This document shows, piece by piece, positions 14,171 through 59,995 of a DNA stretch of 64,000 bases. The stretch's first letter is position 1; each line of letters opens with the position of its first letter. This stretch comes from Bacteroidota bacterium (GTDB lineage: Bacteria; Bacteroidota; Bacteroidia; 2-12-FULL-35-15). The DNA lies in NCBI GenBank assembly GCA_025963715.1, contig JAOQAG010000024.1, positions 1,155 to 65,154 on the forward strand, given 5' to 3'. The position numbers were made by a program, and so were the translations under genes. The notes below the pieces were generated by a model. That model was not told where the DNA came from. It made no database searches and was given only the letters and a program-made list of their open reading frames with translations.

Positions 14171-14202
14171 ATATAGCATAAGCACTGCATCTGCGCACAG
14201 CA

Positions 14203-14240
14203 AAACTTTGAACTTTTGAACTTTAAACTTTGAACTTTTT
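14203..14240. repeat. short tandem aactttgaactttaaactttgaac element (family E)
   Basis: Copies at 30819-30853, 57757-57800 and 57937-57980. Confidence 0.7.
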
Positions 14241-24211: not shown

Positions 24212-24336
24212 TTGGTGTTTAACCGCAGAGAACGCTAAGGAGGCGCAGAGTTCGCGGAGGCTGGAATTAAAAATTAATTGAAATCGGAAAGTTTATACCA
24301 GGCTTATAACTATTTAATTGAAAAAACCTTAATTTG

Positions 24337-24431
24337 TGCGTCATTGCGAGGGCTTTTCGCCCGAAGCAATCTCATACCAGAATATAAACTAGAGTGAGAT
24401 TGCTTCGGGCGAAAAGCCCTCGCAATGACGT
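24337..24431. repeat. long near-perfect inverted repeat, family C (gcgtcattgcgagggcttttcgcccgaagcaatctca ... tgagattgcttcgggcgaaaagccctcgcaatgacg)
   Basis: ~37-bp arms with a ~20-bp loop. A second, near-identical copy lies at 36299-36393. A related element (ctccgctcgaaatgacag) lies at 54819-54907. Confidence 0.85.
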
Positions 24432-24487
24432 TCTTAAAATAATTTATTTTCATGGTGCAAAGTTTCGGATACTCACTAAAAATTAAA

Positions 24488-24582
24488 CCACATAAGGCAC
24501 AAAGAACACATAGGTTCTACATGTTAAGTACTACATTTTTACGCCTCGCCTTATGTGCTCTTTGTGCCTTATGTGGTAGAAA
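24488..24582. repeat. inverted repeat, family D (ccacataaggcacaaagaacacataagg ... ccttatgtgctctttgtgccttatgtgg)
   Basis: Single-arm copies at 35802-35835 and 57662-57695. Word-variants cactaag/cactgag at 57527-57640 and 57890-57912. Confidence 0.8.
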
Positions 24583-24639
24583 AAAATGCCGGATAATTAA
24601 AGATGTTGTTAGTACTCAAGGGTGGGGATCCCTATAAAT

Positions 24640-34187: not shown

Positions 34188-35277
34188 ATGATTACTACAG
34201 ACCAACTAAAAGACCTTCGGGAGCGCACGGATGCGTTGAGGGGGCATCTTTGACGTCGACCGCAAATTACGGGAAATAGCCGAAGAAGAGGAAAAAGCAC
34301 TTGCTCCCAATTTCTGGGACAATCCTAAAAAAGCAGAAGAACTGCTGAAACAAACCAAGATCAAAAAAAACTGGACCAAGTCGTATGCTTCTTTAGCGGG
34401 CAGCATGGACGACCTGGAGCTGATGTATACTTTTTTTAAGGAAGGGGAAGCATCGGAAGAGGATGTGATGCAGCAATTTGGCCTTACAAGCACCTTGCTG
34501 GAAGAGATCGAGTTTAAGAACATGCTGAGCGGCAAGGAGGATATCCTGAGCTGCGTGGTGCAGATCAATGCCGGTGCCGGTGGTACCGAAAGCTGCGACT
34601 GGGCCGAAATGCTCATGCGCATGTACCTGATGTGGGGCGAAAAGAATGGATACAAGGTAAAAGAAACCGATCGCTCGGAAGGCGATGTGGCCGGAATTAA
34701 ATCGGTAACGCTGGAGTTTGAAGGCGATTATGCCTTTGGATATTTAAAAGGCGAAAACGGTGTACACCGCCTGGTGCGCATTTCCCCGTTTGATTCCAAT
34801 GCAAAACGGCATACGTCGTTTGCATCGGTGTATGCTTATCCGCTGATCGATGACACGATTGAGATCGATGTAAATCCCGGTGACCTGGAATTTGAAACGT
34901 TTCGCTCCGGCGGTGCGGGCGGACAAAATGTGAACAAGGTGGAAACGGCGGTACGACTGTATCACAAACCATCGGGTATCATCATCAAAAACCAGGAATC
35001 GCGCTCGCAATTGCAAAACAAAGAAAATGCGATCAAGTTATTGAAGTCGCAATTATTTGAAATTGAGCTGCGCAAACAACGCGAAGCGATTGATGCGATC
35101 GAAGGAAATAAAAAGAAAATTGAATGGGGATCTCAGATCCGTAATTATGTTTTTCATCCGTATAAACTGATCAAGGATGTGCGCACGGGTTACGAAACGT
35201 CCAATATACAGGCGGTGATGGATGGCGATCTCAAGGATTTTATAAAAGCGTATTTGATGGAGTATGGGAATAGTTAA
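34188..35277 (+). CDS. prfB: peptide chain release factor 2, expressed through a +1 programmed ribosomal frameshift
   Basis: Frame-0 [24 protein letters not shown] ends at an in-frame TGA inside AGGGGG CAT CTT TGA C (34239-34254). The +1 frame continues [14 protein letters not shown]... into the track ORF 34405..35277, which carries SPF and GGQ motifs. Confidence 0.9.
34239..34254 (+). other. prfB: prfB +1 frameshift site: internal SD-like AGGGGG, 3-nt spacer, slippery CUU, UGA, C
   Basis: Exact match to the canonical RF2 autoregulatory frameshift cassette. Confidence 0.85.
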
Positions 35278-35373: not shown

Positions 35374-35784
35374 ATGGTAAAGAAAAACAAGAACAACAAT
35401 CGTCCTACACAGCCTCTCTCCCTTGAGGGGAGAGCCGGAGAGGGGTATATTGTTTATCACAATACGCGCTGCTCTAAAAGTCGCGAGGCTTGCAGTATTT
35501 TGGAAGAAGAAGGTGTAAAATTTGAGACCATCGAATATTTAAAAACGCCGCCAACACAAACAAAAATAAAAGAGCTAAAAATGCTGGGTATAAAAGCCGC
35601 AGAATTGGTGCGGAAGAGCGAACCTTTGTTCAGGGAAAAATTTGCAAATAAAAAATTAACGGAAACGCAATGGATCAAAATACTGGCAGAAAATCCGGTG
35701 TTGATCGAACGCCCGATTGTAGTAAAAGGCAACAAAGCGATCATCGGAAGGCCGCCGGAAAAGGTGCTGGAGCTGATCGGCTAA
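35374..35784 (+). CDS. ArsC/Spx-family (YffB-like) thioredoxin-fold protein
   Basis: IVYHNTRCSKSREA (CxxS/redox Cys near the N-terminus) and LIERPIVV. A 22-aa N-terminal extension contains a family-A'-like palindrome (ctctcccttgaggggagag), so the real start is uncertain. Confidence 0.7.
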   Translation: MVKKNKNNNRPTQPLSLEGRAGEGYIVYHNTRCSKSREACSILEEEGVKFETIEYLKTPPTQTKIKELKMLGIKAAELVRKSEPLFREKFANKKLTETQWIKILAENPVLIERPIVVKGNKAIIGRPPEKVLELIG

Positions 35785-36298
35785 AAACTATAGATTTTTT
35801 CCACCACATAAGGCACAAAGAAACACATAAGGCGAAGCGTGTTGCTGTGTTTGTAATGCTCCACTTGTTGTGCAGTTGTTGGGCGCTCATTATTTTTGCA
35901 TGGTTGGCCCAATGGGTTTTATCGGGTTTAAAGCTAAACAAATGTTTATATTGTTTTGAGGGGAACAAACAAACGGTTAAAATTATTTGACGAACGGTTA
36001 ACTACATTCCAAAATAGTAACCAATATTTAATCCGGCATTCCACAAATAACCAGTAACAGGCGCATCTATTATTTTTAAAACGCCGTACCTGAATGTCGG
36101 TTCAATTCGCAGATCATTCCTGCTGTTTAATCACTACTTTCCTTTGATCCATTTATTAAGCCTTTCAGCGAGTATGCCGCAATTAGGATGTTCTACCGAG
36201 CGGCAGGGGCACATTTGCAACAAAAAATAGTATCCGCCAGAGCTTAAAATAAAATGAGTATCCGGAACTTTGCACCATAAAAAGAATTTACTTTAAAA

Positions 36299-36393
36299 AC
36301 GTCATTGCGAGGGCTTTTCGCCCGAAGCAATCTCATTGTAGTTTTATACCCTGGTGTGAGATTGCTTCGGGCGAAAAGCCCTCGCAATGACGC
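36299..36393. repeat. long inverted repeat, family C (second copy)
   Basis: Arms near-identical to 24337-24431. The loop differs. Confidence 0.85.
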
Positions 36394-36463
36394 ATTGATT
36401 AAAACTTTTTCCAATAAAATAACTATGGCCTGGTATAAACTTTCCGACTTCATTTAAAATAAA

Positions 36464-37858
36464 TCAGTAATTACTGATGATTACTTTTTTTCTTACCAAA
36501 ACACTGTTTCCCTCAAGCACTTGTACAAAGTACAGCCCCGGCTGTAAAATTTCGCGTTGTATCGTAATAGTTTGCCCGCTTATGTTTTTTGTTTCTTTTA
36601 CAAGCTGCCCCAGGGCGTTAAAAACAGTAAGCGTTGCATTCCTCAACATTGCATCCGGATAGATGGTGGTTTCAGATGTAAAAGGATTGGGATAGATCCT
36701 CCCCTTTTCTGCAGCATTGTTTTCCTCAATACCGCTAAAGGCATTGATCTGGAATTTAAAAATTGTTCCAAGGCTGTCGGTTCCTCCCAACTCTGTCATC
36801 CCATATAAATTGGTACCATCCGAGATCAGGGAACCGCAGGCAAAATTTCCGCTTGTGTGCCCGTCAAAATCCATCATATCAGCAAAACCAGTTCCATCCG
36901 GTTTTATTTTAAACAAAACTCCTTTATCGTTTGCACCACCTACTGCCGTCATTCCATACAAAAATGTTCCATCGTAAAAAAGGGAACCTTCGGCAAAACG
37001 TCCGTTTGAAGCGCCTGCAAAATCAAGTAATTTTGAGTAATTTGTTCCATCCGTTTTTATTTTAAAAATGGTTCCGTCGTTATGCGCTCCTCCAAAGGAA
37101 TTCATTCCATATAAAAATGTTCCGTCATATATCAGCGAGCCGTATGCTCCGGTACCGCTTACAGTGTCATTAAAATCAAACAAATTCAAAGAGCCCGTGC
37201 CGTCCGGTTTTATTTTAAAGATCTCTCCGTTATTGTAAGCGCCACCGCCAAAGGTTAAACCGTAAAAATAAGTTCCGTCGTAAATAAGACTCCCCGGACC
37301 GGCACCGTTTAAAACATCAAAATCAAATACATTTGCATAGCCGGTGCCATCGGTATTGACCTTAAATAATATTCCGGCACTGTTTATTCCTCCGGCAGAG
37401 GTAGTGCCATACAATACGCCCCCAACAAGCACAAGAGGTGCCAGCGGATTATTACCGGTTAAAATGCTATCAAACGTGTGAAGCCTGGTATACCCTGTTC
37501 CATCCGGAAGTATTTTAAAAATTGTTCCATAATTATCAGCGTTACCGATAAAAGAAGTGGTTCCATATAAAAATACACCGTCCGAGATCAAAGGCCCAAA
37601 AGGAGTGGCTCCGGTGGTTGTGCTGTCAAAATCAAATAGCCTGGTAAACAGGCTTCCGTCGGGCTTTATTTTAAAGATAGTTCCAAAATTACCGGTACCG
37701 CCATGCAGCGCTGTTCCGTACAAAAATGTTCCGTCGAAAAAAAGATCTGTTTTAGGATTGCTTCCGGTTGAAATTCCTGTAAAATCGAGCAGTTTGGTAT
37801 ATTGTGCATTGGCAGCTACTGAAACCAGGAAGAAAAAGAAAATAAATTTTGTTTTCAT
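36464..37858 (-). CDS. secreted protein with about 8 GloVer (Gloeo_Verruco, choice-of-anchor) tandem repeats and T9SS type-A C-terminal sorting domain
   Basis: Signal peptide MKTKFIFFFFLVSVAANAQ. ~48-aa repeats of the form LYGTT..GG..N.GTIFKIKPDGTGY..L.DF. C-terminal RIYPNPFTSETTIY...GLYFVQV. Confidence 0.75.
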   Translation of the reverse strand: MKTKFIFFFFLVSVAANAQYTKLLDFTGISTGSNPKTDLFFDGTFLYGTALHGGTGNFGTIFKIKPDGSLFTRLFDFDSTTTGATPFGPLISDGVFLYGTTSFIGNADNYGTIFKILPDGTGYTRLHTFDSILTGNNPLAPLVLVGGVLYGTTSAGGINSAGILFKVNTDGTGYANVFDFDVLNGAGPGSLIYDGTYFYGLTFGGGAYNNGEIFKIKPDGTGSLNLFDFNDTVSGTGAYGSLIYDGTFLYGMNSFGGAHNDGTIFKIKTDGTNYSKLLDFAGASNGRFAEGSLFYDGTFLYGMTAVGGANDKGVLFKIKPDGTGFADMMDFDGHTSGNFACGSLISDGTNLYGMTELGGTDSLGTIFKFQINAFSGIEENNAAEKGRIYPNPFTSETTIYPDAMLRNATLTVFNALGQLVKETKNISGQTITIQREILQPGLYFVQVLEGNSVLVRKKVIISNY

Positions 37859-38089
37859 CGTGCATCGTTGTTTGTGATCGTTGTATTGAAAATACATTCA
37901 CTATAAAAATACACTTTTTAGTAATTGCCAGTGAAGCGGGGGGAATAAAAACCGCCCCGCAGAGATGCGGGGCGGTTAATATAAACGTTTTATTGTATCA
38001 CTATTTTTTTGCTGCCTGTAATGATTACAGGCGGTTTTTGTTTTGTTACTTTTCACACGTATTACCTGATACAAACTACTAAATACTAA

Positions 38090-41000
38090 TTATTGCTGTT
38101 TCACCATTTTTTTAGTTTCAATAATTTTACCATCCACTACCAATGTATAGGTATAAATACCATTGGAAAGATCATCGCCAAACACATTTAATTGTCCCGC
38201 TCCTTTTTGTGTTAATTCCGTTGCCTGGATCAATTTGCCTTGCGCATTGTAAAACAAAATTTGTGCTTTACTTACGTTATCCGGTAAAAAATAAGTAATT
38301 ACCGTTTGTTCAGCCCATGGATTTGGCGTGTTCTGATTCAAAACAATGTTTTGTCCGTCGTTTAAATTAACGTGAATAGGAGTTGCATTGCTGGTGCCGT
38401 TCAATGCCTGGTGGCTTGCACAACATGCATTGATCATATCTGATAATACATTGATCTGATTTTGGAGGTTAGTGTTTTGATTTTGCACGTACGTGTTGAT
38501 CGAATCCTGGTGGTGGTTAATATTGCTTACACTATCCAACTTTGCCTGTTGTTCCTGCATGCCTTTCATTAAAATAGCAATAAAAGCATTATAGTTAAGT
38601 GCTTTGTATGTTACAGCAGGATGTACCAATACACCCGCGGTATCGTAATCAGCAGGTTTCACTGTCGAATAAATTAATTCTGGTAATACTGTTTGAACAT
38701 CCTGAGCAATTAAACCGTATTGTTTTTGCCCCGGGAATTTAAAACCGTTTGTATTTGCAGTATCAAGGTAATATTGCCGGGGTTTTAATTGCTTAATAAT
38801 TCCCATAGCGTTGGTAATGGAATCAATGTTTGTTTTAAACATTATATCGGATGTTAAAATATTATTACTGCCGCTAAGTGTTCCATTAAACAGTACATTG
38901 CCTTCAAACCGTCCTGCATAGTTTGTGGTTGCTCCACTTGCCGACGCATAAATCCCGTAAGCCGTATTGCCGCCTGTAGCGGTAGTAAATATGCCGTAAT
39001 TGGTTGCACCGGAAGCAAATCCGATTGCACTAAATACACCACCCTGATTGGTAACAGTGCCATCCATAGCATCGGCTTCAACCCCTGTATTGTTTGGTGC
39101 AGTACCCGATCCTGTAAATAATCCGCCATCATTACCTGTGGATGAGCCCGAAGCGCTTGCGTCCACAGCAATATTATCTCCGCTCCCGGTTTTTGTGGTT
39201 GTAAATTTTCCAGCCTCAAAATCATCGCTGGTGCTTACTTCCAGTTTTGCTATTGTTGGTGCTACTGTACCTATTCCGATTCTGTTTACACCAGCCGTGC
39301 CCGATCCGGTAAACACAATATTGTTATTGTTCATAGGTACTTCGCGGTTATTAAGCAATGCTGCCGGATTTCCCGGCTGCCCTACATCCTGCCCGAAAGC
39401 TACATAATTGGGGGTTATAAGGCTTAAGGATGTTCCGTTATGTGCGCCAGCAACGCCACCCGATGCACTTGCAGGTACGTAGATCACATCCCCGTTTGCA
39501 TCAATTGTGAGCAAACCTGTTCCCGGATTAGGAACGGTTGCCGATGATGTATTTAAGTTTGTAAAACGTAAACCGCTGCTTCCTGTACCACCCGTTCCGG
39601 CAGTAGGACTTACCAGCTGAGAGCTGATCTCCAGTGTGTTTCCGGGAACCATCGTATTGATTCCCATAAACCGCTGCTTTAAAAGTTGCGTGGCTGTATT
39701 GGTCATTGTATTGTCCTTTATAAAAATAGCAAGGTCGCCTGTTTGTGTTTGCGAAAAATCAGAAAACTTGCCAGTCGTCATAGGATTTGCAGGATCCTGC
39801 TGATAGTTGGTTAAGCGGAACAAAGCATCGCCGTTTGAAGCAGCTGTTGTTTTATCGGATAATATTTCCAGCCTCCTTGCCGGATCTTTAAATGGAAATA
39901 AAGGATTGTTGTAAAAATTACCGATCCCCCAGTTGCCAATCGGGCTTATGCGGGCAGTTTCAAGCCCATCCGTACCTGTTGCCGGTGGCGTGCCTGCGCC
40001 GGATGGCGTGGTGGTGGACGTAAAAATAAAACGGAAATAATCGGGCCCGTTACCCGGAGGCAAACCGCTTACCTGGTTATCGCCCCAGTTCAATACGGCA
40101 TCCTGCCGGTCGAAACCGGTGATGGTTCCCGCTTCCTGTTTTAAACCAATGTATACGTTATCGCTCTGGTTGGATACAAACATCCCGATGTCCATCCAGG
40201 AGCGCCATCCGTCGTTGGTAGCACCTTGCACATCATACCCTAAATGCAATAAGCTTAAAGGCCGTGTGATAGGCGTTGTAGGATCGTGGCTGATAGCAAC
40301 ACGTGTGCGGTTAGCCGCTAAACCACCGGGATTAAATGCAACACCGTTGTTTAACGCACCTATCTGTGTAATGCGGATGCGTTCGCCGTTGTTGGAATAC
40401 AAACTCAAACGGTCGTTCTCCTGCTGGTTAATGCGCGCTTCCAGGTTAGTAGCATTGGTAGGCGCATAGCCCACTTTTAAGCCATCGCCAGCCGTTTGCC
40501 CGGTTCCGTTTTGATTGGTAACCTGCATATACACTTGCCTGTTTTGATCCAGGCTAAGATGTAAGAGGGATTGCGGACGAACATAAATTGCCGAGCTGGC
40601 CGGATTTCCAAAAGTATTTCCCAAACCAAATTCGCCCGTAGGCGCAAAACGGGCAATGTGCCTGCCGTCCAGATCGTCTTCCGAATTTAGATTGGGATCA
40701 ATAGTAGTACCCGCACCAAGCCCCATAAAGCGGAAAGCAAAATCGTCGGGTCCTGTTCCGGTCGGATTGGAATTATCGCTCCATGAAACCACCATCTCCG
40801 TTTGATCCTGCCCCGGTACCAATTGCCTGATCCCGAAATACATTAAATCATTGTTACCGGTAAATGTTATCCCCGTTTTCATCCAGGGGCGGTAACCGTA
40901 TTCTTGTGTAAAACCGCCACCAGTAACAGAATTTTGCGGGCCGTTCAAATGTAAAAGTGAGAAAGCGCCCTTTTGTTGATAGATCGGGCCAAGAAAACCT

Positions 41001-41353
41001 TGTGTTTGAGTATTATCCCCCAATAACAAATAACCGCTGGTGTTTACACCAGTGAGATAACCATTGATAGGATATTGAGGTGTGCCCGGAACGCCAAAAT
41101 CTCCGTTTAGTTTTTCACGGAAAGCGCCATTTGTTTGGGTATAAATTGGGGAGTTAAATAATGTACCAAAAATGTTATTGTTACCACCAAAAGGTGTATT
41201 TCCTGCTCGTGACCAAAAGGCGCCGCTATTGGTACCATTAAGCAATACACTGGCAGGATTATTATTTGTTGGATTTTGCTGTGCAATTACATTCTCATGT
41301 AAGCCCAAACCAAAACCCAATAAGGCAATTGTTTTTAATATTTTATTTTTCAT
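38090..41353 (-). CDS. large secreted tail-fibre-like protein: peptidase-S74 intramolecular-chaperone autoprocessing domain plus T9SS type-A C-terminal domain
   Basis: Signal peptide. An ~800-aa G/N/T-rich region. ILTSDIMFKTNIDSI...LKPRQYY...YGLIAQDVQTVLPELIY matches the S74 / endosialidase-chaperone signature. A coiled-coil stretch follows. C-terminal AQILFYNAQGKLI...GIYTYTLVV is a T9SS CTD. Confidence 0.7.
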   Translation of the reverse strand: MKNKILKTIALLGFGLGLHENVIAQQNPTNNNPASVLLNGTNSGAFWSRAGNTPFGGNNNIFGTLFNSPIYTQTNGAFREKLNGDFGVPGTPQYPINGYLTGVNTSGYLLLGDNTQTQGFLGPIYQQKGAFSLLHLNGPQNSVTGGGFTQEYGYRPWMKTGITFTGNNDLMYFGIRQLVPGQDQTEMVVSWSDNSNPTGTGPDDFAFRFMGLGAGTTIDPNLNSEDDLDGRHIARFAPTGEFGLGNTFGNPASSAIYVRPQSLLHLSLDQNRQVYMQVTNQNGTGQTAGDGLKVGYAPTNATNLEARINQQENDRLSLYSNNGERIRITQIGALNNGVAFNPGGLAANRTRVAISHDPTTPITRPLSLLHLGYDVQGATNDGWRSWMDIGMFVSNQSDNVYIGLKQEAGTITGFDRQDAVLNWGDNQVSGLPPGNGPDYFRFIFTSTTTPSGAGTPPATGTDGLETARISPIGNWGIGNFYNNPLFPFKDPARRLEILSDKTTAASNGDALFRLTNYQQDPANPMTTGKFSDFSQTQTGDLAIFIKDNTMTNTATQLLKQRFMGINTMVPGNTLEISSQLVSPTAGTGGTGSSGLRFTNLNTSSATVPNPGTGLLTIDANGDVIYVPASASGGVAGAHNGTSLSLITPNYVAFGQDVGQPGNPAALLNNREVPMNNNNIVFTGSGTAGVNRIGIGTVAPTIAKLEVSTSDDFEAGKFTTTKTGSGDNIAVDASASGSSTGNDGGLFTGSGTAPNNTGVEADAMDGTVTNQGGVFSAIGFASGATNYGIFTTATGGNTAYGIYASASGATTNYAGRFEGNVLFNGTLSGSNNILTSDIMFKTNIDSITNAMGIIKQLKPRQYYLDTANTNGFKFPGQKQYGLIAQDVQTVLPELIYSTVKPADYDTAGVLVHPAVTYKALNYNAFIAILMKGMQEQQAKLDSVSNINHHQDSINTYVQNQNTNLQNQINVLSDMINACCASHQALNGTSNATPIHVNLNDGQNIVLNQNTPNPWAEQTVITYFLPDNVSKAQILFYNAQGKLIQATELTQKGAGQLNVFGDDLSNGIYTYTLVVDGKIIETKKMVKQQ

Positions 41354-41365
41354 ATTGTTAAGTAT

Positions 41366-42319
41366 TTACCTTAACAACTGAATAAAACCTTTTTTTGTTT
41401 GTTTGCTTTTTTGTTCTGATATATAATAATACACACCATTGTTACAATTTATACCTGCGCTCGTTTTACCATCCCAACCTATATTATAACTTCCTTCAAA
41501 TACTTTTAATCCCCAGCGATCATAGATCGTGTATTTATCGCCTTCTTCGATACCAGTGATAAAAAAAAGATCATTTATACCATCGTTGTTGGGTGTAAAA
41601 ACGTTTGAGATTGGTAAGGCATCTTCCAGATCAATGATACTTACATCCTCAACATAATAATAAGAATTCGGAGTAGACGATGGTTGTATTTCAAGCGTAT
41701 CATTTTCTAATGTTGAATCTGAATAATTGCCAATAGTAATGTACTGCTCGTTTCCATTTGCTTTAAAATCCCCGCTAATCAATACCCATCCCGTTGTATC
41801 TGTTATAAAACTACCTGCTGGGTTTTTAATTTGTGGAGAATAATAGCTAAAAGGATATGTATCTGTACGACTGATCGCAGTATTAGAAAGGTAAGCCCCG
41901 ATATTTGAAACAGCATATTGGCTGTAATCCGATAAAGAAACATAAAACGAAACCTGATAAGTATGACCTGATAACATGGGCTGAGATAATTTACTCTGTA
42001 TGTATTCCATCCATATTCCGGAGGACAAATCCATTGCCAAGAAACCGCAATAGCCGTTCCCTGAACGCGCGTATTCATAGCCAATACCATTGGAAGGAAC
42101 ACCCACCAAACCGGTATTACATACATTCAAATAATCGGATGTTGCACCAGTTGGTGTATCCCATCCCAAACAATGAGTAATCTGGTGATCCCAAGGTACC
42201 GAAGGACCAATAGGACAAGTATCATAAATTTCAAAATCTCCATTGTAAACAAGGTTAGTTTGGGCGTTGCAAAACACCGAAGCAAAAACAAAAAATAATA
42301 TGTAAAAGGGTTTATTCAA
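41366..42319 (-). CDS. secreted protein with T9SS type-B (gliding-motility-associated CHU_C-like) C-terminal sorting domain, paralogue 1
   Basis: TTG start. Signal peptide MNKPFYILFFVFASVFCNAQ. C-terminal NVFTPNNDGINDLFFITG...YTIYDRWGLKVFEG...GWDGK...GVYYYI is the type-B CTD signature. Confidence 0.8.
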   Translation of the reverse strand: MNKPFYILFFVFASVFCNAQTNLVYNGDFEIYDTCPIGPSVPWDHQITHCLGWDTPTGATSDYLNVCNTGLVGVPSNGIGYEYARSGNGYCGFLAMDLSSGIWMEYIQSKLSQPMLSGHTYQVSFYVSLSDYSQYAVSNIGAYLSNTAISRTDTYPFSYYSPQIKNPAGSFITDTTGWVLISGDFKANGNEQYITIGNYSDSTLENDTLEIQPSSTPNSYYYVEDVSIIDLEDALPISNVFTPNNDGINDLFFITGIEEGDKYTIYDRWGLKVFEGSYNIGWDGKTSAGINCNNGVYYYISEQKSKQTKKGFIQLLR

Positions 42320-42570
42320 TTATTAAGATTGATTACGTTTTTATCACAAGCATTTTTTAACAGCCATTGTGACTTGTCTGTATCAAATTTAAGGCTTTTA
42401 TCTCATAAATATTTCTCCTTTCTTCTTTAAATAAAAATCTAATAGAAACTGAAAATTAGAACATCTGCATTACATTTCAATGGACACTTTTGATGCTCTG
42501 GGACATTTTCCGGTTTCCAACATGCTCAACAAAACCTAACACTGTAATTTTACTGCAATTATAAGTGTTG

Positions 42571-42593
42571 CCGCGGACAAAATTTGTCCGCGG
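42571..42593. promoter_or_regulatory. perfect 11-bp inverted repeat ccgcggacaaa-a-tttgtccgcgg in the conserved leader, flanked by two direct repeats aacatgctcaaYaaaac
   Basis: Read directly. An identical copy lies at 44088-44110 in the second unit. Confidence 0.5.
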
Positions 42594-42858
42594 TCAATAT
42601 AATTAGGGTTTTCTTTAGCTCTGTGGTATTTTATTGGAATTTGAACATGCTCAATAAAACAGGGCACATTGTTTTTCAAAGATGAGGAGAGAAAAAGAGG
42701 AAGTCAATCCGTAAAAACACGGTATTTTACCCGTAAAAAAACGGGTATGGGTTTTATTTTAATAATAGAAAAAAAAATGAGAATGTTGTTACCTATCCGT
42801 AAGTATAAGGCGAGCTAAGGACCTACTAGTGCAGGTAATTTTCGAAATACAGGTTGTT

Positions 42859-43836
42859 TTACCTTAACAATTGAATAAAACCTTTTTTTGTTTGTTTACC
42901 TTTTTGTTCTGCAATGTAATAATACACACCGTTGCTACAATCTAACCCTGCATTGGTTTTGCCATCCCAGCCTACATTATAACGACCTTCAAATACTTTG
43001 ACACCCCAACGATCATAAATTATATATTTGTCGATTTCTTCTAAACCTGTGATTAGAAAGAGATCATTTTCCCCATCACTGTTTGGTGTAAAAACATTTG
43101 CAATAGGCTTCTGATCTGTTATATCAAAGGTACTTCCACCATCCACAAAATAATAAGCATTTGGTACATCAGTATTGTGTAAAACAGTAAGCGTATCGGT
43201 CGTTATTGAATCCTTAAAATTACCAATAGTAATATATTCTTCTCCTCCCAATGCGCTATAATCACCCGAAATTAATGTCCATGATGTCGTATCGTTTAAA
43301 AACACGCCGACAGGGCTTGTAATTTGCGGCACATAGTTTAGTGGTGCAGGGCTACAACTATTACCAACAGGAGTATTCGAGATATAAAAACCAAGTTGTC
43401 CAACAGCAATATTTGAATTATTACCTAAGGAAACATAAAATCCAATACGGTAGATATGCCCTGCAACAAGAGGACTGATGAATTTCCCCTGTATGTACTC
43501 CCACCAAAAACTTCCATTATAACATCCGCCACCACTTAAAGTGTAAGCATAAAAACCACAATAGCCGTTTCCGGAATAGGGCATTTGATAACCAAATCCA
43601 TTGGCTGGAATTGCGACGGTTGATGTATTGCAAGTATTCAAATAATCTGATGTTGCATAGGTCGGTGCTTTCCATCCTAAACAATGCTCTATTTCATAAG
43701 GAATAGAAAAGGGGCTGGATGGGCCAACAGGGCAAACGTCATACATCTCAAAATCCCCATTGTAAACAAGGTTCGTTTGAGCCTTGCAGAACACTGAAGC
43801 AAAAACAAAAAATAATATGTAAAAGGTTTTATTCAA
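42859..43836 (-). CDS. secreted protein with T9SS type-B C-terminal sorting domain, paralogue 2
   Basis: N-terminus and C-terminus are near-identical to paralogue 1. The central ~200 aa are about 50-60% identical. Confidence 0.8.
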   Translation of the reverse strand: MNKTFYILFFVFASVFCKAQTNLVYNGDFEMYDVCPVGPSSPFSIPYEIEHCLGWKAPTYATSDYLNTCNTSTVAIPANGFGYQMPYSGNGYCGFYAYTLSGGGCYNGSFWWEYIQGKFISPLVAGHIYRIGFYVSLGNNSNIAVGQLGFYISNTPVGNSCSPAPLNYVPQITSPVGVFLNDTTSWTLISGDYSALGGEEYITIGNFKDSITTDTLTVLHNTDVPNAYYFVDGGSTFDITDQKPIANVFTPNSDGENDLFLITGLEEIDKYIIYDRWGVKVFEGRYNVGWDGKTNAGLDCSNGVYYYIAEQKGKQTKKGFIQLLR

Positions 43837-44087
43837 TTGTTAAGATTGATTACGTTTTTATCACAAGCATTTTTTAACAGCCATTGTGACTTGCCTGTAT
43901 CAAATTTAAGGCTTTTATCTCATAAATATTTCTCCTTTCTTCTTTAAATAAAAATCTAATAGAAATTGAAAATTAGAACATCTGCATTACATTTCAATGG
44001 ACACTTTTTGATCTCTGGGACATTTTCCGGTTTCCAACATGCTCAACAAAACCTAACACTGTAATTTTACTACAATTATAAGTGTTG

Positions 44088-44110
44088 CCGCGGACAAAAT
44101 TTGTCCGCGG
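44088..44110. promoter_or_regulatory. second copy of the 11-bp perfect inverted repeat
   Basis: ccgcggacaaaatttgtccgcgg. Confidence 0.5.
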
Positions 44111-44342
44111 TCAATATAATTAGGGTTTTCTTTAGCTCTATGGTATTTTATTGGAATTTGAACATGCTCAATAAAACAGGGCACATTGTTTTTCAAAGAT
44201 GAGGAGAGAAAAAGAGGATATCAATCCGTAAAAACACGGTATTTTACCAGTAAGAAAACGGGTGTTCTTTTTTTATATCTTTACAAGAAGCATTTATACC
44301 TGTTACCATTACAATACAAAGCATACTAACCACAACCACAAA

Positions 44343-45173
44343 ATGAAAAAACACCGCCTCCTCCTTATCTGTTTTTGCCTTTTTACTTCTTTTATAAAAA
44401 GCCAGGAAAACAATACAGCCCAGGCTACTGCTTTTTATAAAACAGCACAGCACAAAGTGGAGCTGGAACAATATGATTCGGCTACTTATTATTTTGGCCG
44501 TGCAATTGATTTACATTATCCCGATAAAAAGGTATACGGCAATCGTGGTGTAAATGAATCCCGGCAAGAGAAATATGCCGAAGCACTTATTGATTACGAT
44601 ACCGCGTTAAAATACATGCCGGATAATGCACTGCTATTATGTAACAAAGGAATTGCGCTTGCACGCTTAAAAAGAAATGAGGAAGCCATTACGTATTTTA
44701 ACCTTGCACTTAAAATCGACAGTACCGATGCTGAAACATACAGCTGCCGGGGCGTTACTTACCAGGAAATGAATGATAGCATTGCTGCCCTTAAAGATTA
44801 CAACCATGCGATCATCTTGAGTCCCAATTTTGCCGATTATTATTACAACAGAGCGCGCCTGTTTAAAGATTCGAAGCTGGCCATTAAAGATTACGAAAAG
44901 GCAATTAAACTGGAGCCGGGTATGTATGATGCTTATTATAACCTTGGGGTAGTATATCTTAACACAGATAAATTTAAGAATGCCATCAGCATATTTCAAA
45001 AAGCATTACTGCTTACAACCGATCATAAAGCAGAAGTAAATTATGAGCTGGCAGAATGTTATTGGTATTCCAACAAAAATGATAAAGCGTGTGTTTATTT
45101 CAAACTAGCATTATCATTGGGCTATACCGGGGAAATTGCAAAAGACCTGCAGGAATATTGCAATGGTAAATAG
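44343..45173 (+). CDS. TPR-repeat protein with signal peptide
   Basis: MKKHRLLLICFCLFTSFIKSQ, then about 7 TPR units (AxxYxxAL...P). Confidence 0.75.
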   Translation: MKKHRLLLICFCLFTSFIKSQENNTAQATAFYKTAQHKVELEQYDSATYYFGRAIDLHYPDKKVYGNRGVNESRQEKYAEALIDYDTALKYMPDNALLLCNKGIALARLKRNEEAITYFNLALKIDSTDAETYSCRGVTYQEMNDSIAALKDYNHAIILSPNFADYYYNRARLFKDSKLAIKDYEKAIKLEPGMYDAYYNLGVVYLNTDKFKNAISIFQKALLLTTDHKAEVNYELAECYWYSNKNDKACVYFKLALSLGYTGEIAKDLQEYCNGK

Positions 45174-45340
45174 TAAAGCCCCTTCAGACCCAACCAACGC
45201 TTTTGTTTTTTTCCACTGTTTTTAAAAAACAACCCGTCTTAACAAAAAGCTGATCTAATGATTCCTTTATCGTAATTGTTTTTTCTTAAAATTTGTAATA
45301 TATTAGCGTGGATAACCACATAAACAGTTTTTACATTCGA

Positions 45341-48172
45341 ATGAAAATTACTACTCCACGAAGCAAGCTTCTTGCTTTTGTATTTTTATTAGTGTCCGTT
45401 TCATCAGTATTTGCACAGGTAAGTTATAATGCAGCTGCCATTTACAGCATCCGCAAAGTAGCTCCCAACTACGGCGGTAAGCCCATACAAGTGCGCCGCA
45501 CCTGCGATAACGCCGTAAAAGATATTCCATTTACTTCCTGCGGCGACCTCGATACCGTTGCACTCAAAACATTTGTGGTTGCAGCAAATCCTTTAAGCTC
45601 CATCACTGCCGCATCTGCCGCAGCATACAGCCTGCGCAGGTTAAGCTGCAGCTATGCTGGCAATGCTATACAAGTGAGACGCAGCAGCGACAATGCAACA
45701 CAAAACATTGGCTTTAACGCCTGGGGCGATTTGGATACCGCTGCCCTGCGCACCTTTGTAGGAGCCAACAGCGCCTTTGTTACCATCTGGTACGATCAAA
45801 GCGGGAACGCCCGCAATGCCACACAAGCTGTAACCACGCTGCAACCCCGGATCATGAATGCCGGTGTGATAGAGCGGCAGGGCGGAATGCCCGCCATCCG
45901 CTGGCTTGGTATTGGCTACGCATTAGCTACTGCCTCCTTTACAGCTTACGGAAGTGCTGCCTGCTATAACGCGGTGGCAAAAGTAAACGCCAATACTACT
46001 ACCGGTTACAATACCACCGTAAATAAATGTACGGCCAACTTTCCGGCGCCCTTGGATCTTTACAACGCACAGCTGGTAATCGGATCCGGACCCAGCTATA
46101 CTTTTTTTAGCATGTCGCAAACATTTGATGTTACACAAAGCTATGCCATCTGGACCTACCAGGCTTCCTCCGGCGGAAGCGTAAATGCTTATAAAAACAG
46201 CACCAATATATGCACCGGCAGTGTTGTTTATTATGGCGATATCGGAACCCCGCTGGTATTAGGCAGCAGGGCCGATATACTTACCGGGCTGGATGGCTGG
46301 ATGTCGGAAGTGATCACCTTTGCCGTATTACCAAGTGCTACAGAGCGCGCCTTTGTGGAATGGACACAGGGACAATATTACAACCTCAGCGGCGCGCCTG
46401 CATTAGGAACAATCCCTCCGGGCGCACCCAGCGGCTATATTGCCACCTGGTACGATCAAAGCGGAAACTCCGTAAATGCAGTACAGGCTACAATCGCCAA
46501 CCAGCCCAGGATCATCAACGTGGGCGTGATAGAGAAAGACGGAACCAAAACAGCCCTGCACTTTGGCGGTGCATCGCAAAACCTTACCGTTGCCACACCT
46601 GTTACCTCCTACCCTGCTTCCATCAGTGTGTTAGGCAATACCGCAGGCGCATCCACCAACGGTGCATTTGTAAAACTGGGCGCAACCTCCGGAAGCGGCG
46701 GCATTGGCATCGGCATTGGTAACTCTGGCGGAAACTTTGATGCTGCGGGTACATCACTAATCGGCTTAAAGGAATTCCAGGTATGGTGCGCTTCCAGCCC
46801 CAATGTAAATTTTCCTTCCAGCCCGTTTACAGTAACACAGATCCAGCAAACTGCTGTTGCAGGCAGTGGCATGACGGCTTTCCTGAACGGAACAAACGTA
46901 CCTTTGGCTTCGGCAGGCAACGTTACCGATGGCAGCACTCTCAGCGGCAATCTCTTTATTGGCGGGTATAACAACGGCACCAGCCGTTTTCCGGTGATGA
47001 AACAATCGGAAGTGATCGTATACGGAAGCGCGCTTTCCGTTACACGCCGCACTTTACAGGAAACCAACCAGGCAGCGTATTATAGCCTTACCATCAGCAA
47101 TAATAAATACACACCACCGGCTAGCGGCTACCGTTTTTATGTAACCGGTGTGGGCCGCGAAACTGTCAGCGACAGCGTAGCAGCAACCCGCAGCTCTGCC
47201 GGAATGGGCTTTATTGTGGGACAAAGCGGAACCGACTTTTTAAAAGACAACGGCGATTATATTACCGCAGGTATGGATTGCCCGGTACCAAGCAGCTCCA
47301 CCTCCAACCTTCCGGCAACCGTAACTCAGCGCTGGACCAATGATTGGTATATCCATAAAACGGATGTGAGCTCCAACAACGGCACCATCACTATTTATTT
47401 TGATTACAGCGAATACGGCGTATGGGGATTACCGGGCATTGCGGCCAATTATGTATTGCTGGATCGCAGTACACCTTCCGGAACGTTTGCTATTGTGGCC
47501 GGAACAACGCCAAGCGTATCGGGCAACCGGGTTTTGTTTTCGGTAGATGCCGCCAACATTACCACCGACAGGTATTACACTATTGGGACAAAAAACATTG
47601 CATTAAGTCCATTGCCAATAGAGTTGCTGGAGTTTAAAGCAGAAGCCTGCGATAAAGATGTCTGTCTCAACTGGAGCACTGCCACCGAAACCAACAACGA
47701 TTTTTTTACCATAGAAAAAACAGCGAACGGTACTGATTTTGAAACCGTGACCACTGTGGATGGCGCCGGTAACAGCACACAACGCCGCAACTATACTGCA
47801 ATGGATCATGCACCATACGAAGGAAAATCCTATTACCGTTTAAAACAAACGGATTTTAACGGGCATTATACTTACTCCGGTTTGGAAGATGTAGCGTTTA
47901 CCGGAACAACAGATTTTTCGTTTGAAGTATTCCCCAATCCAAATGCAGGTGAAAACATTCAGCTGGCCATTAACACTTCCAAAGGCGAAGAGATCCTGGT
48001 GGTGGTATATGATGCAACAGGCAGGGAATCGTACTCGAAAGTAATTATTACGGATGATAATTCCGACAATGTGTTTGCGATGGATCCTTCCGGAAAATTA
48101 AAACCGGGCATTTACTTTATTACCGCCACTTCCAAACAGGCAATCTACAGCAAGCGGATGATCGTGCAGTAA
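45341..48172 (+). CDS. large secreted repeat protein with T9SS type-A C-terminal sorting domain
   Basis: Signal peptide MKITTPRSKLLAFVFLLVSVSSVFAQ. Internal repeats include YSIRKVAPNYGGKPIQVRR / YSLRRLSCSYAGNAIQVRR and WYDQSGN..NA.QA....QPRI.N.GVIE. C-terminal FEVFPNPNAGENIQL...GIYFITA. Confidence 0.7.
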   Translation: MKITTPRSKLLAFVFLLVSVSSVFAQVSYNAAAIYSIRKVAPNYGGKPIQVRRTCDNAVKDIPFTSCGDLDTVALKTFVVAANPLSSITAASAAAYSLRRLSCSYAGNAIQVRRSSDNATQNIGFNAWGDLDTAALRTFVGANSAFVTIWYDQSGNARNATQAVTTLQPRIMNAGVIERQGGMPAIRWLGIGYALATASFTAYGSAACYNAVAKVNANTTTGYNTTVNKCTANFPAPLDLYNAQLVIGSGPSYTFFSMSQTFDVTQSYAIWTYQASSGGSVNAYKNSTNICTGSVVYYGDIGTPLVLGSRADILTGLDGWMSEVITFAVLPSATERAFVEWTQGQYYNLSGAPALGTIPPGAPSGYIATWYDQSGNSVNAVQATIANQPRIINVGVIEKDGTKTALHFGGASQNLTVATPVTSYPASISVLGNTAGASTNGAFVKLGATSGSGGIGIGIGNSGGNFDAAGTSLIGLKEFQVWCASSPNVNFPSSPFTVTQIQQTAVAGSGMTAFLNGTNVPLASAGNVTDGSTLSGNLFIGGYNNGTSRFPVMKQSEVIVYGSALSVTRRTLQETNQAAYYSLTISNNKYTPPASGYRFYVTGVGRETVSDSVAATRSSAGMGFIVGQSGTDFLKDNGDYITAGMDCPVPSSSTSNLPATVTQRWTNDWYIHKTDVSSNNGTITIYFDYSEYGVWGLPGIAANYVLLDRSTPSGTFAIVAGTTPSVSGNRVLFSVDAANITTDRYYTIGTKNIALSPLPIELLEFKAEACDKDVCLNWSTATETNNDFFTIEKTANGTDFETVTTVDGAGNSTQRRNYTAMDHAPYEGKSYYRLKQTDFNGHYTYSGLEDVAFTGTTDFSFEVFPNPNAGENIQLAINTSKGEEILVVVYDATGRESYSKVIITDDNSDNVFAMDPSGKLKPGIYFITATSKQAIYSKRMIVQ

Positions 48173-48293
48173 AACATAACAGCAATTTTTTTTCATAAAA
48201 ACAATGTTTTTAACGCCTGGATTTTTAACAAAATTCCGGGCAAAAAAAGCACTCTTTCCTAAACAAATAAATCTTAAATTTGGGGTTCAAAAT

Positions 48294-48368
48294 TAACACA
48301 TCTAACATCTAACATCTAACATCTAACATCTAACATCTAACATCTAACATCTAACATCTAACATCTAA
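48294..48368. repeat. heptanucleotide microsatellite (CATCTAA)x~10, ending ~25 bp upstream of the fumC start codon
   Basis: Perfect tandem copies read directly. Confidence 0.9.
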
Positions 48369-48392: not shown

Positions 48393-49790
48393 ATGGAATA
48401 CAGAATTGAAACCGACACGATGGGCGAGGTAAAAGTACCTGCTGATAAATACTGGGGAGCACAAACAGAACGCTCACGCAACAACTTTAAAATAGGACCG
48501 GAAGCGTCCATGCCGAAAGAGATCATTTATGCTTTCGGTTACCTGAAAAAAGCGGCCGCAATGGCAAACAATGAATTGGGCGTACTGGATGCAGCAAAAA
48601 AAGATCTGATCGCAAAAGCGTGTGACGAAATTATTGCAGGCAAACTGGATGATCAATTCCCATTGGTGATCTGGCAAACAGGATCGGGAACACAATCCAA
48701 CATGAATGCAAATGAAGTGATCGCCTACCGCGCACACGTAATGAACGGCGGAAAATTAAGCGACGAGAAAAAAGTATTGCACCCGAACGATGATGTAAAT
48801 AAATCACAATCATCCAATGATACCTACCCCACTGCCATGCACATTGCGGCTTACAAACAGGTGGTGGACATTACCATCCCGGGAATGGAAAAATTAAGAG
48901 ATACACTGGTAAAAAAATCAAACGATTTTAAAAGCATCGTAAAAACCGGCCGTACGCATTTTATGGATGCCACACCGCTTACACTGGGGCAGGAATTCAG
49001 CGGTTACGCACAACAGGTTACCAACAGTATCCGCGCCATTAAAAACGCGCTGGAAATGGTAAGCGAGCTGGCACTGGGCGGAACAGCCGTAGGAACCGGA
49101 TTGAATACACCAAAAGGATACGATGTACTGGTTGCTAAAAAAATTGCAGAGCTTACCGGCTTGCCATTTGTAACGGCACCCAATAAATTTGAAGCGCTTG
49201 CTGCGCACGATGCGATGGTGGAATTATCCGGCGCCTTAAAACGCTCGGCAGTGGCCCTGATGAAAGTAGCCAACGATGTGCGCATGTTGAGCTCCGGCCC
49301 ACGCTGCGGGATCGGCGAAATTATTATTCCGGATAACGAACCGGGATCATCCATTATGCCGGGCAAAGTAAACCCTACACAGCCGGAAGCGCTTACCATG
49401 GTATGCGCCCAGGTAATGGGGAATGATGTGGCGGTTTCTATCGGCGGATCAAACGGGCATTTTGAGCTGAACGTGTTCAAGCCATTGATCGCAGCAAACG
49501 TATTGCAATCCGCACGTTTGATCGGTGATGCATGCGTATCGTTCAACGATAATTGCGCAATTGGTATTGAGCCGAACCTTCCGGTATTGAAACAACACCT
49601 CGAAAATTCGCTGATGCTGGTAACTGCATTAAACACACACATCGGTTACGAAAAAGCTGCGAAGATTGCGAAAACGGCACACAAAGGAAATAAAACCCTG
49701 CGTGAAGCGGCAATTGAGCTGGGCTATGTAACCAACGAACAATTTGACGAGTGGGTAAAACCGGAAGATATGACCGGCTCCATGAAATAA
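48393..49790 (+). CDS. fumC: fumarate hydratase, class II
   Basis: [13 protein letters not shown] signature. 465 aa. Confidence 0.95.
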
Positions 49791-52650: not shown

Positions 52651-52740
52651 CTACGAATAACGAATTTAAACGAATAACGAATACTCACATAGTAGCATGT
52701 ACACAGATTCGTTATTCGTTTAAATTCGTTATTCGTTGTA
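52651..52740. repeat. ~30-bp-arm inverted repeat of family F (cgaataacgaatttaaacgaataacgaata ... tattcgttattcgtttaaattcgttattcg)
   Basis: Read directly. It lies between manC-like and the aminotransferase gene. Confidence 0.8.
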
Positions 52741-57526: not shown

Positions 57527-57980
57527 TACCACTAAGGCACTAAGAACACTGAGCCCCCGCCCATTAACCACAAAAGAAAACAAAAGAAACAAAAGACGAA
57601 GCTAATATTTTACCACTAAGGCACTGAGGGCACTAAGGTTATTTCCCCCAGCCCCCGTCAACCACATAAGGCACAAAGAAACACATAAGGCGGGGCTTGT
57701 TAACCTGTGGTGTAGTGTATGATGTGTTTTAATAAATAATTAAATCGTCATCCGTACACAGCAAACTTTGAACTTTTTAACTTTAAACTTTGAACTTCTT
57801 TTGCCTTCGTGGCTTCGTGGTAAAAAAACCGCTCCGCAGGAACACACAGCATCCTTTTTATTTTGAATTTCCTCCCTTTTTCTTTCCCTTTCTTAGTGCC
57901 TTAGTGGTAAAAAATGATCGCGCAAGCGATCCACACAGCAAACTTTGAACTTTCCAACTTTAAACTTTGAACTTTTTATT
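57527..57980. repeat. dense repeat field in the feoA / mlaE divergent region: family D word-variants (accactaaggcactaag, accacataaggcacaaag) and family E (aactttgaactttaaactttgaac) x2
   Basis: Read directly. Confidence 0.75.
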
Positions 57981-59622: not shown

Positions 59623-59995
59623 GTAATAGAAACGCAGATTTTATAGGATCGGTTAGGATTAAAAAGATAGCTGTGTCTATCAGCAGGCGCGAGTGTCCCA
59701 CTCGTGCTTTTTTATTTTATGGCATCCTGCCATTGTACAAAAGCTTTAAGTTTGTGTAAATTGGAACCCAGATTTTATAGGATCGGTTAGGATTAAAAAA
59801 GATAGCTGTGTCTATCAGCAGGCGCGAGTGTCCCACTCGTGCTTTTTTATTTTATGGCGTCCCGCCATTGTACAAAAGCTTTAAGTTTGTGTGAATTGGA
59901 ACGCAGATTTTATATGATCGGTTAGGATTAAAAAAGATAGCTGTGTGTGCTATTATCAGCTAAGATTAAAAAGATGGCTGTATTTTCTACTTAAT
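59623..59995 (+). repeat. tandem array of ~135-bp units (2 full plus 1 degenerate). Each unit has a TAAGTTTG -7-like box and a terminator hairpin (gcaggcgcgagtg-tccc-actcgtgc + ttttttatttt). Candidate tandem sRNA genes.
   Basis: Units at about 59623-59762, 59763-59897 and 59898-59995. A lone copy of the hairpin core lies at 4195-4225. Confidence 0.6.

Follow-up and report, generated by a model that had tools for sequence, protein, structure and literature searches.

Type A cargo proteins of the T9SS (type IX secretion system), such as the gingipains of Porphyromonas gingivalis and RemA, AmyB and ChiA of Flavobacterium johnsoniae, combine an N-terminal Sec signal with a C-terminal domain (CTD) of approximately 75 amino acids (TIGR04183/PF18962). 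PorV takes them up, after which they are either set free or anchored in a static manner, whereas type B cargo proteins stay on PorP/SprF-like shuttles (PMC12618676). A cognate porP/sprF-like gene lies immediately downstream of a type B gene in 9 of 12 cases in F. johnsoniae, an arrangement that is usual and not obligatory, and the orphan substrates of type B, namely Fjoh_1123 and Fjoh_1720 along with Fjoh_4934, are served by an unlinked shuttle, Fjoh_1677 (PMC12618676). The stretch of DNA considered here (the window; 64 kb of the 202-kb contig JAOQAG010000024.1) comes from the metagenome-assembled genome (MAG) of an uncultured member of the Bacteroidota deposited at NCBI, and contains six open reading frames (ORFs) between arsC and fumC (proteins MCW3084543-48, locus tags JWP12_19xx), five of which encode a T9SS-type CTD. 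Comparison with other genomes indicates that two of these genes, a type B gene and the gene for a 1087-aa tail-fibre-like protein with a Peptidase_S74 (S74) domain, constitute a conserved cassette, and that the interval as a whole is probably a patchwork, not itself mobile, in which four independent gene units have accumulated; the gap that they occupy, within a prfB-arsC-fumC linkage, would be prone to rearrangement.

The type B proteins of the window are like the orphan substrates of F. johnsoniae in CTD class (TIGR04131/CHU_C) and in gene context, with no porP/sprF-like gene downstream; unlike the F. johnsoniae orphans, the 317-aa type B gene of the window is directly followed by the gene for a fibre-like protein with a type A CTD, and this arrangement is conserved across genomes. 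S74 domains, according to the literature on S74 and MYRF, trimerise the fibre upstream of them and then cleave themselves at a serine. The C-terminal intramolecular chaperone domains that phages have in tail fibres and tailspikes (K1F endosialidase, 3GW6; S16 gp37, 6F45; T5-like phages) and MYRF (7DC3) share PF13884, the Ser-x4-Lys dyad and a long helix with the 1087-aa protein, and a fibre-like segment rich in G, S, T and N precedes the S74 domain in the phage proteins and in the 1087-aa protein alike. In phages the S74 domain ends the protein and is discarded, whereas in the 1087-aa protein a T9SS CTD comes after it; unlike phage fibres, the 1087-aa protein also possesses a signal peptide and a conserved N-domain not of phage type, and it is a cellular protein encoded on the chromosome. 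Finally, the vlp and vsp genes of Mycoplasma are families of variable surface-protein genes with homogenised 5' regions. The two type B genes of the window are similar to them in being tandem paralogues with a near-identical promoter-leader and signal peptide and strongly divergent mature regions, but there are only two copies, and a look for a phase-variation switch revealed no invertible element and no variable homopolymer in the shared part.

In all eight other loci compared (L090, L169, L170 and L173-L177), a CHU_C homologue is encoded directly upstream of a homologue of the S74 protein. Where genes have been called, at seven of the loci (L169, L170, L173-L177), the two share a strand and are separated by 11-53 nt, as compared with 12 nt in the window, and in L090, a metagenome locus, the pair was seen by tblastn. 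The type B partners have 296-355 aa and are 37-48% identical to the 317-aa protein of the window, and the S74 homologues are 38-43% identical to the 1087-aa protein where this was measured (by tblastn, in L090, L169 and L170). The genes around the pair are unrelated housekeeping genes, different at each locus. From this gene order, the type B and S74 genes, which the earlier note on this DNA had listed as separate items, appear to be a self-contained two-gene cassette. At L177, one of these loci, the S74 gene is preceded by a tandem pair of type B genes, which share a leader and signal peptide (277 nt, 91% identical; 2736-3012 and 3895-4170) and encode proteins that are 40% identical. At L175, the intergenic DNA upstream of the type B gene (3437-3984) encodes a stop-terminated fragment of approximately 95 aa (...GAFSLFHLNGSQGTFVQEGGYRPWMRTGISLTDNNDFSYFGL...) with homology to the S74-family N-domain; this apparent pseudogene relic suggests turnover of the cassette. 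A search of the literature that was available found no description of a cassette in which a type B gene precedes an S74 fibre gene or of homogenised leaders of its duplicated type B genes, and nothing relevant for S74/PF13884 with T9SS, for TIGR03803, or for PF13884 with PF18962.

The 1087-aa protein consists, in order, of a signal peptide, an internally duplicated N-domain (approximately residues 65-470), a hypervariable middle (471-817), the S74 domain with a helix (835-978) and the CTD. Signal peptides were judged by inspection of the translations (hydrophobic core with an A-x-A/Q-type end), and CTDs were sought among the window ORFs with Pfam, NCBIfam and purpose-built hidden Markov models (HMMs); the cut-offs in bits were 23 for TIGR04183, 27 for PF18962, 35 for TIGR04131, 27 for CHU_C (PF13585), 44 for TIGR03803 and 22 for PF13884. 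Peptidase_S74 (PF13884) is matched at residues 835-894 with 45 bits, and the type A CTD (1009-1087) by TIGR04183 with 32.9 bits; PF18962 gives 25.0 bits, just below its cut-off. The S74 domain is not the end of the protein, being followed by approximately 100 further residues that include the CTD. In an alignment of 45 homologues (A3), mean identity is 50% in the N-domain, 15% with 51% gaps at 471-610, and 30% at 611-817, a segment rich in G, A, T, N and S. The highest value for any part of the protein, 63%, belongs to the CTD (window positions 38093-38329), and this unusual conservation hints at a specific recognition partner. The Ser-x4-Lys dyad of the S74 domain is present as S835 and K840 (motif SDIMFK), and none of S835, D836 and K840 varies among the 45 sequences; in 120 homologues their conservation is at least 80%. 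An AlphaFold2 (AF2) model predicts a 58-residue helix after the S74 domain, at 921-978. The predicted local distance difference test score (pLDDT) is 70-87 in the N-domain, for which Foldseek, used with this model of low confidence, found no match in the PDB. It is below 50 for 472-610 and much of 628-842, and so poor a monomer model of the fibre region is as expected for an obligate trimer. There are at least 404 homologues of the 1087-aa protein, named 'tail fiber domain-containing protein' in their sources; among the best 120, the number on which all architecture counts given here are based for each protein, PF13884 is found in every one and PF18962 in 107, and several have collagen repeats. 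The closest non-self database match is 63% identical over 47% of the length.

Only the distal part of the 1087-aa protein resembles phage proteins. The family profile matches PDB entries 6f45 (long tail fibre of phage S16; 2.5e-12) and 7dc3 (ICA domain of MYRF; 3.9e-6), and Foldseek with the S74 model retrieved 7dc3 and 3gw6 (K1F endosialidase chaperone), in the chaperone domain only. Five tail-fibre families of PHROG match the protein, and tblastn against 50,697 phage records found tail fibres of T5-like phages, in both cases within residues 718-952; this restriction points to a cellular protein that borrows a phage fibre tip and chaperone module. The 954-aa protein encoded at the fumC end of the interval matches phrog_10356 ('virion structural protein') at residues 97-364 (E 4e-34). 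These similarities might be taken to mean that the 1087-aa gene is a decayed tail-fibre gene of a prophage or tailocin and that its neighbours are phage leftovers, but such an origin can hardly be credited for a protein with a signal peptide and a T9SS CTD, whose resemblance to phage proteins is limited to the tip and chaperone, and whose homologues have the same cellular architecture and stand in housekeeping contexts. A search of 2.9 million viral contigs in IMG/VR yielded only two weak matches, and no capsid, terminase, sheath or baseplate genes are found nearby.

The 317-aa and 325-aa type B proteins score 44.5 and 42.2 bits with TIGR04131, and 66.4 and 67.0 bits with CHU_C, respectively. 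The 317-aa protein has a signal peptide, an N-domain of approximately 215 aa and the CHU_C CTD. A profile of the family found nothing significant among PDB sequences, and the fold of the N-domain rests on a weak match to CBM_4_9 (E 3.4e-4). The family of type B proteins of approximately 320 aa comprises 819 clusters at 50% identity (E<=1e-30), and the N-domain also occurs in four to five copies in giant proteins of 1.3-3.4 kaa; the closest non-self database matches of the two window proteins are 57-58% identical. A metagenome scan with the type B alignment used the CTD motif alone as its pattern and hence returned mostly generic type B CTDs, with only four full-length matches. The S74 gene lies downstream of the 317-aa gene, and a 539-nt non-coding stretch downstream of the 325-aa gene. 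PorP_SprF was not found among the window ORFs scanned (a partial scan), and with no porP/sprF-like gene adjoining them, the two type B genes belong to an 'orphan' type B subclass.

The paralogous type B proteins are 60% identical, with DNA identity of approximately 50-60% over the part encoding the mature domain and of 72-88% over that for the CTD, and each gene is preceded by a 424-nt leader. The two leaders are 97.4% identical (11 of 424 positions differ), and the signal-peptide region is also near-identical. In leader copy 1, positions 42391-42384 form a -7 box of the Bacteroidota type, TAAATTTG, which precedes the start codon by 64 nt. The duplicated leader also contains a perfect hairpin, GACCGCGGACAAATTTTGTCCGCGG, between two direct TTGAGCATGTT...CAGAGC boxes approximately 130 nt apart (RNA fold z = -3.1), and the hairpin and boxes may be a regulator-binding architecture. 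By blastn and shared 11-mers, the leader is not conserved in other genomes, where leaders are alike only between paralogues within a genome, and no Rfam family matches it. The leaders are therefore best accounted for by gene conversion at the locus or by partial reduplication, and a conserved riboswitch or small RNA is unlikely; as judged from the sequences, gene conversion most likely keeps the two copies 97% identical. It could be objected that the tandem duplication is an artefact of assembly, two strain alleles having been laid in tandem, inasmuch as the source is a MAG and the copies, with 5' flanks that are almost the same and 3' ends that resemble each other, look like an allelic bubble. 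This is very improbable, given the differences between the leaders, the unique 116-nt spacer (42744-42858) between the two units, and the occurrence of the same tandem arrangement with leader homogenisation in L177, an independent assembly from another sample.

The setting of the cassette was compared in 80 fumC loci of GTDB species representatives, the relatives being contigs of incomplete genomes or MAGs. In 23 of these arsC is found upstream of fumC, and in most of these prfB is located just before arsC; prfB-arsC-fumC appears to be an old linkage of the Bacteroidota. The gap between arsC and fumC is 18 nt to 3.9 kb in the 23 loci and 12.6 kb in the window. The two genes are directly adjacent (18-80 nt) in L009, L021, L036, L037 and L073, and the slot is empty in several Flavobacteriales MAGs; elsewhere it contains an OMP_b-brl_3 barrel (L022, fumC 96%) or an AAA_15/AAA_21 ATPase pair (L005). 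The closest relative, identified by way of the 954-aa protein, is L082 (fumC 97.8%, NTP-transferase 97.8%, SprT-like protein 98.1%), followed by L085 (fumC 95%), identified likewise. Both have an ortholog of the 954-aa gene just upstream of fumC (86% identical in L082, 73% in L085), immediately adjacent to it in L085 and separated from it in L082 by a gene for a 253-aa CarboxypepD_reg protein. Downstream, both relatives preserve the gene order, L082 up to FeoB (the end of that locus) and L085 up to MlaE. On the upstream side of the 954-aa ortholog the genes are wholly different: L082 has HEPN/NTase, KAP-like and T5orf172 genes, L085 those for MgtE and a 2-hydroxyacid dehydrogenase, and the other five genes of the interval are absent from the syntenic position in both. 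The 954-aa gene therefore appears to be a fast-evolving, lineage-conserved neighbour of fumC. At 90% identity, all five cargo proteins of the interval form clusters of one member.

Several observations concern the DNA of the relatives near these genes. The 954-aa protein evolves much faster than its neighbours, with 86% identity to L082 as against 95-98% for them. In L082 the stretch at 9679-10660 has the CarboxypepD_reg gene inserted between the 954-aa ortholog and fumC and, beyond it, a relic, '...GQAISSKRMIVQ', which corresponds to the final residues of the 954-aa protein's CTD. Defence-like genes are found in the variable DNA beside fumC or the 954-aa gene, namely the AAA_15/AAA_21 ATPase with a 200-aa protein at 8198-9984 of L005, and the HEPN/Polbeta NTase, KAP-like NTPase and T5orf172 genes at 183-3948 of L082, which suggests that the slot accepts different kinds of accessory genes.

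The earlier note had described the interval as an accessory island flanked by repeat elements. That the interval varies between relatives was borne out by synteny; the idea of a single island was not, as the 954-aa gene is conserved beside fumC, the units occur separately elsewhere and no mobility genes were found. In its stronger form this idea would have the whole 12 kb acquired horizontally en bloc between arsC and fumC, with the repetitive extragenic palindromic (REP)/inverted-repeat (IR) elements and the microsatellite at its ends. The size of the interval, 12.6 kb as opposed to at most 3.9 kb in any other locus examined, the spread of G+C content among its genes (0.36-0.49, with a window mean of 0.42) and the lack of a close homologue of five of the six genes in the relatives are all compatible with such an acquisition. 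Acquisition en bloc is nevertheless quite improbable. No integrase or transposase was identified among the window ORFs scanned, no tRNA gene in the 64 kb, and no direct or att-like repeats bracketing the interval; the 954-aa gene, conserved in both L082 and L085, would lie outside any insertion. The supposed flanks also proved to be something else, as the IR element belongs to a REP-like repeat that is dispersed, another copy being present within the window, and the heptamer array is part of a conserved fumC leader, and the units stand singly in other genomes. The interval is probably a patchwork, not itself mobile, made up of four independent units: the GloVer gene, the cassette with its second type B paralogue, the TPR gene and the 954-aa gene.

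A different way to unite the six genes is to regard them as one integrated locus, a set of adhesin or S-layer-like operons whose proteins act together at the cell surface. They are clustered and form two divergent transcription blocks around 43837-44342, and five of the eight CTD-bearing ORFs of the window fall inside the interval. By a rough hypergeometric estimate (at least five of eight in a run of six among approximately 52 genes) this clustering has p ~0.006, and the five include a gene that arose by tandem duplication; the clustering is modest. At L176 a TPR gene is situated approximately 1 kb upstream of the cassette, but its product is only 25-27% identical to the window TPR protein, which amounts to generic TPR similarity, and it was rejected as a homologue. 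Joint action of the six proteins is improbable, because only the type B-S74 pair is conserved elsewhere and the GloVer, TPR and 954-aa genes are accompanied by other genes at all other loci seen. The S-layer-like nature proposed in the earlier note found nothing in its support, there being no S-layer-type domain.

The GloVer protein is an ordinary member of its family. It scores 225.4 bits with TIGR03803, has seven repeats of approximately 50 aa (DNA period 147-156 nt) and carries a type A CTD (TIGR04183, 46.5 bits) at its extreme C-terminus; the NCBI entry, MCW3084543.1, is the 464-aa form and includes a signal peptide. The layout, with a C-terminal sorting signal after the repeats, is that of the family to which NCBIfam gives the name 'choice-of-anchor tandem repeat GloVer-containing protein', from which it shows no notable difference. 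Of 4412 homologues at E<=1e-5, the best 120 include 107 that carry PF18962, mostly in the same layout of approximately 460 aa; the closest non-self database match is 56% identical. Profile searches thus recovered the sevenfold GloVer repeat, Peptidase_S74, and three type A and two type B CTDs, in agreement with the earlier note, which had also considered these domain combinations unusual and the pairing of GloVer repeats with a CTD uncommon. That opinion does not survive the frequency of PF18962 among homologues of the GloVer, S74 and 954-aa proteins or the number of clusters in the type B family.

The TPR protein has a signal peptide and matches TPR_1, TPR_2 and related generic models, and all its NCBIfam equivalog scores are far below their cut-offs. 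No CTD was detected in it with the Pfam, NCBIfam or purpose-built models; the six T9SS cargo genes of the earlier note are therefore five. The TPR gene is absent upstream of the 954-aa orthologs in L082 and L085. At the extreme C-terminus of the 954-aa protein is a type A CTD (TIGR04183, 42.9 bits), and the protein contains an internal repeat of two modules. PF09206 (GH54) matches it twice, with 44 bits, at profile positions 11-87 of 315 only, a limit that led to its not being filed as a glycosidase. The AF2 model (mean pLDDT 86.7) comprises two ConA/LamG-like modules, further beta-sandwich domains and the CTD, and Foldseek relates it to the GH54 enzyme AbfB, clostridial neurotoxin Hc, laminin G and neurexin LNS domains, the GH54 match having a TM-score of 0.40 on the target and 14-17% identity. 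With AbfB (1WD3) and ConA/LamG-like lectins it has in common the ConA-like beta-sandwich, in which the first ~77 residues of the GH54 catalytic domain are matched; unlike AbfB, it yielded no catalytic region and no AbfB carbohydrate-binding domain. As modelled, a lectin-like binding function is more probable for the 954-aa protein than GH54 activity. Its homologues, numbering at least 811, occur in forms of approximately 930-950 aa and 1230-1250 aa, and 114 of the best 120 contain PF18962.

The features of the interval are listed in the table. The six ORFs, the arsC-like and fumC flanks, the inverted repeat and the heptamer array were all recovered where the earlier note had placed them. A second copy of the IR element, 87% identical, is present at 24313-24486, and no real Rfam family corresponds to the element, whether the window was searched at the gathering threshold or the interval at E<=1; sub-threshold matches of miRNA hairpins to it were dismissed as artefacts. 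Both copies (approximately 175 nt, with a perfect 36-bp stem) follow a type A cargo gene on its 3' side, at a distance of 100-170 nt and oriented alike with respect to it, and these REP-like elements may be terminators or stabilisers of mRNA. Short repeats at 35800-35843, 24541-24585 and 57658-57701 co-occur with the REP-like elements, and at least six other hairpin repeats are found in further intergenic regions of the window. The heptamer array consists of 10.1 copies of ACATCTA. The fumC leader is kept in L082 (10718-10844), where the array is degenerate, and the array is absent in L085 (12900-12985), which together indicate that this microsatellite expanded recently. The array also interrupts an independent Logan assembly (L001), which breaks within it.

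Table. Features of the arsC-fumC interval and its borders (window coordinates).
Feature	Position	Strand	Details
arsC (glutaredoxin-type arsenate reductase), left housekeeping border	35374..35784	+	TIGR00014 108.8 bits vs 106
REP-like inverted-repeat element, just 3' of GloVer gene	36244..36418	.	perfect 36-nt arms 36300-36335 and 36357-36392
Unit 1, GloVer repeat protein, 464 aa from Met14	36464..37858 (ORF 36464-37897)	-	
Unit 2b, 1087-aa tail-fibre-like S74 protein	38090..41353	-	
S74 intramolecular-chaperone domain; Ser835 codon 38849-38851, Lys840 codon 38834-38836	38420..38851	-	
Unit 2a, 317-aa type B CTD protein, 12 nt upstream of S74 gene	41366..42319	-	
Promoter-leader copy 1, upstream of 317-aa type B gene	42320..42743	-	
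Unit 2c, 325-aa second type B paralogue	42859..43836	-	
Promoter-leader copy 2, upstream of 325-aa paralogue	43837..44260	-	
Unit 3, TPR protein, 276 aa from Met28	44343..45173 (ORF 44262-45173)	+	
Unit 4, 954-aa protein, 943 aa from Met12	45341..48172 (ORF 45308-48172)	+	
fumC promoter-leader: -7 box TAAATTTG 48275-48282, then ACATCTA array 48298-48368	48275..48368	+	
fumC (class II fumarate hydratase), right housekeeping border	48393..49790	+	TIGR00979 766 bits vs 665

Elsewhere in the window, prfB (34190-35277) begins with an ATG at 34190 and has a programmed +1 frameshift site, 'CAT CTT TGA C', at approximately 34240-34250, with an AGGGGG Shine-Dalgarno-like element before it; the listed ORF at 34405-35277 is the downstream frame only. 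Intergenic low-complexity tandem or palindromic arrays occur at 8948-9077, 14196-14240, 52653-52736, 57756-57977 and 59625-59934. They include a 44-nt unit in three copies, AACTTTGAACTTT-type repeats, CGAATAACGAAT palindromes and a 135-nt unit in 2.3 copies, and they fall into several families, with members recurring throughout the window. Three type A CTD genes lie outside the interval, namely tandem paralogues of approximately 360 aa (60138-61223 and 61382-62464) and a BD-FAE/esterase-CTD protein (22842-24149), and their presence indicates that CTD genes are frequent throughout the genome.

Several points weigh against the reading of the interval as a patchwork that contains a conserved, T9SS-dependent cassette. 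The census of type B-S74 pairs covers nine loci picked from a list of homologues and is not an unbiased survey, and the more distant type B relatives at L091 and L092 adjoin other type A CTD proteins, not S74 proteins. The absence of the five genes from relatives applies to the syntenic position, and beyond it is indicated indirectly by the lack of close database homologues. As the contig comes from a MAG, misassembly at repeats is conceivable. Competence for secretion is assumed, in that no T9SS core genes were found among the window ORFs scanned (a partial scan), and what is set out below on docking by the type B protein, and on whether S74 cuts itself before or after export, is pure inference.

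The signals for export are those of described T9SS cargo. The type A proteins have Sec signal peptides with ends, by inspection, such as ...VAANAQ, ...ENVIAQ and ...SSVFAQ, and profile matches of their CTDs in the PDB are the solved T9SS CTDs 8glk, 8glj and 5jvk. They differ from the named cargo of P. gingivalis and F. johnsoniae in that the GloVer, S74 and 954-aa passenger domains are uncharacterised and no T9SS machinery was found among the window ORFs scanned; eight CTD genes in 64 kb make a T9SS in the host very likely. The five CTD-bearing proteins are probably T9SS cargo, either surface-bound or secreted. All six proteins would be exported by Sec, the TPR protein to remain in the periplasm. 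The three type A cargoes would pass through the SprA/Sov translocon by way of PorV and then be released or attached to the surface after removal of the CTD, and the two orphan type B proteins would stay surface-bound on a PorP/SprF-like shuttle encoded elsewhere. The S74 domain would drive trimerisation of the fibre and then cut itself at Ser835 by means of the Ser835-Lys840 dyad, and the same cut would detach the CTD of the fibre. Because the CTD comes after the cleavage site, self-cleavage would strip the fibre of its secretion and anchoring signal, so cleavage would have to follow or tolerate export, and retention of the fibre would require a partner. The type B protein may tentatively be cast as that partner, a surface dock that retains the mature fibre. 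It is conceivable, if doubtful, that the cassette as a whole makes a two-component, T9SS-dependent surface fibre that is trimerised by a phage-type chaperone, exported by its CTD, freed of both chaperone and CTD by the cut at Ser835, and kept on the cell solely through docking of its N-domain on the shuttle-anchored type B protein, with the hypervariable middle and the duplicated, diverging type B genes with their homogenised leaders serving to vary the binding specificity.

Each cargo protein appears to be an ordinary member of a large, experimentally uncharacterised CTD family of the Bacteroidota, and the interval a cluster of accessory cargo genes of an ordinary kind, in a slot whose content varies. 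CTD proteins are very numerous in environmental Bacteroidota, which leaves little weight to the interval as an 'unusual cargo island'. The type B-S74 pair joins both classes of T9SS signal in one operon, and the position of a self-cleaving phage chaperone between the fibre and its own secretion signal raises the question of when cleavage occurs and how the fibre is retained. The cassette gives the orphan type B family of approximately 320 aa its first functional context.

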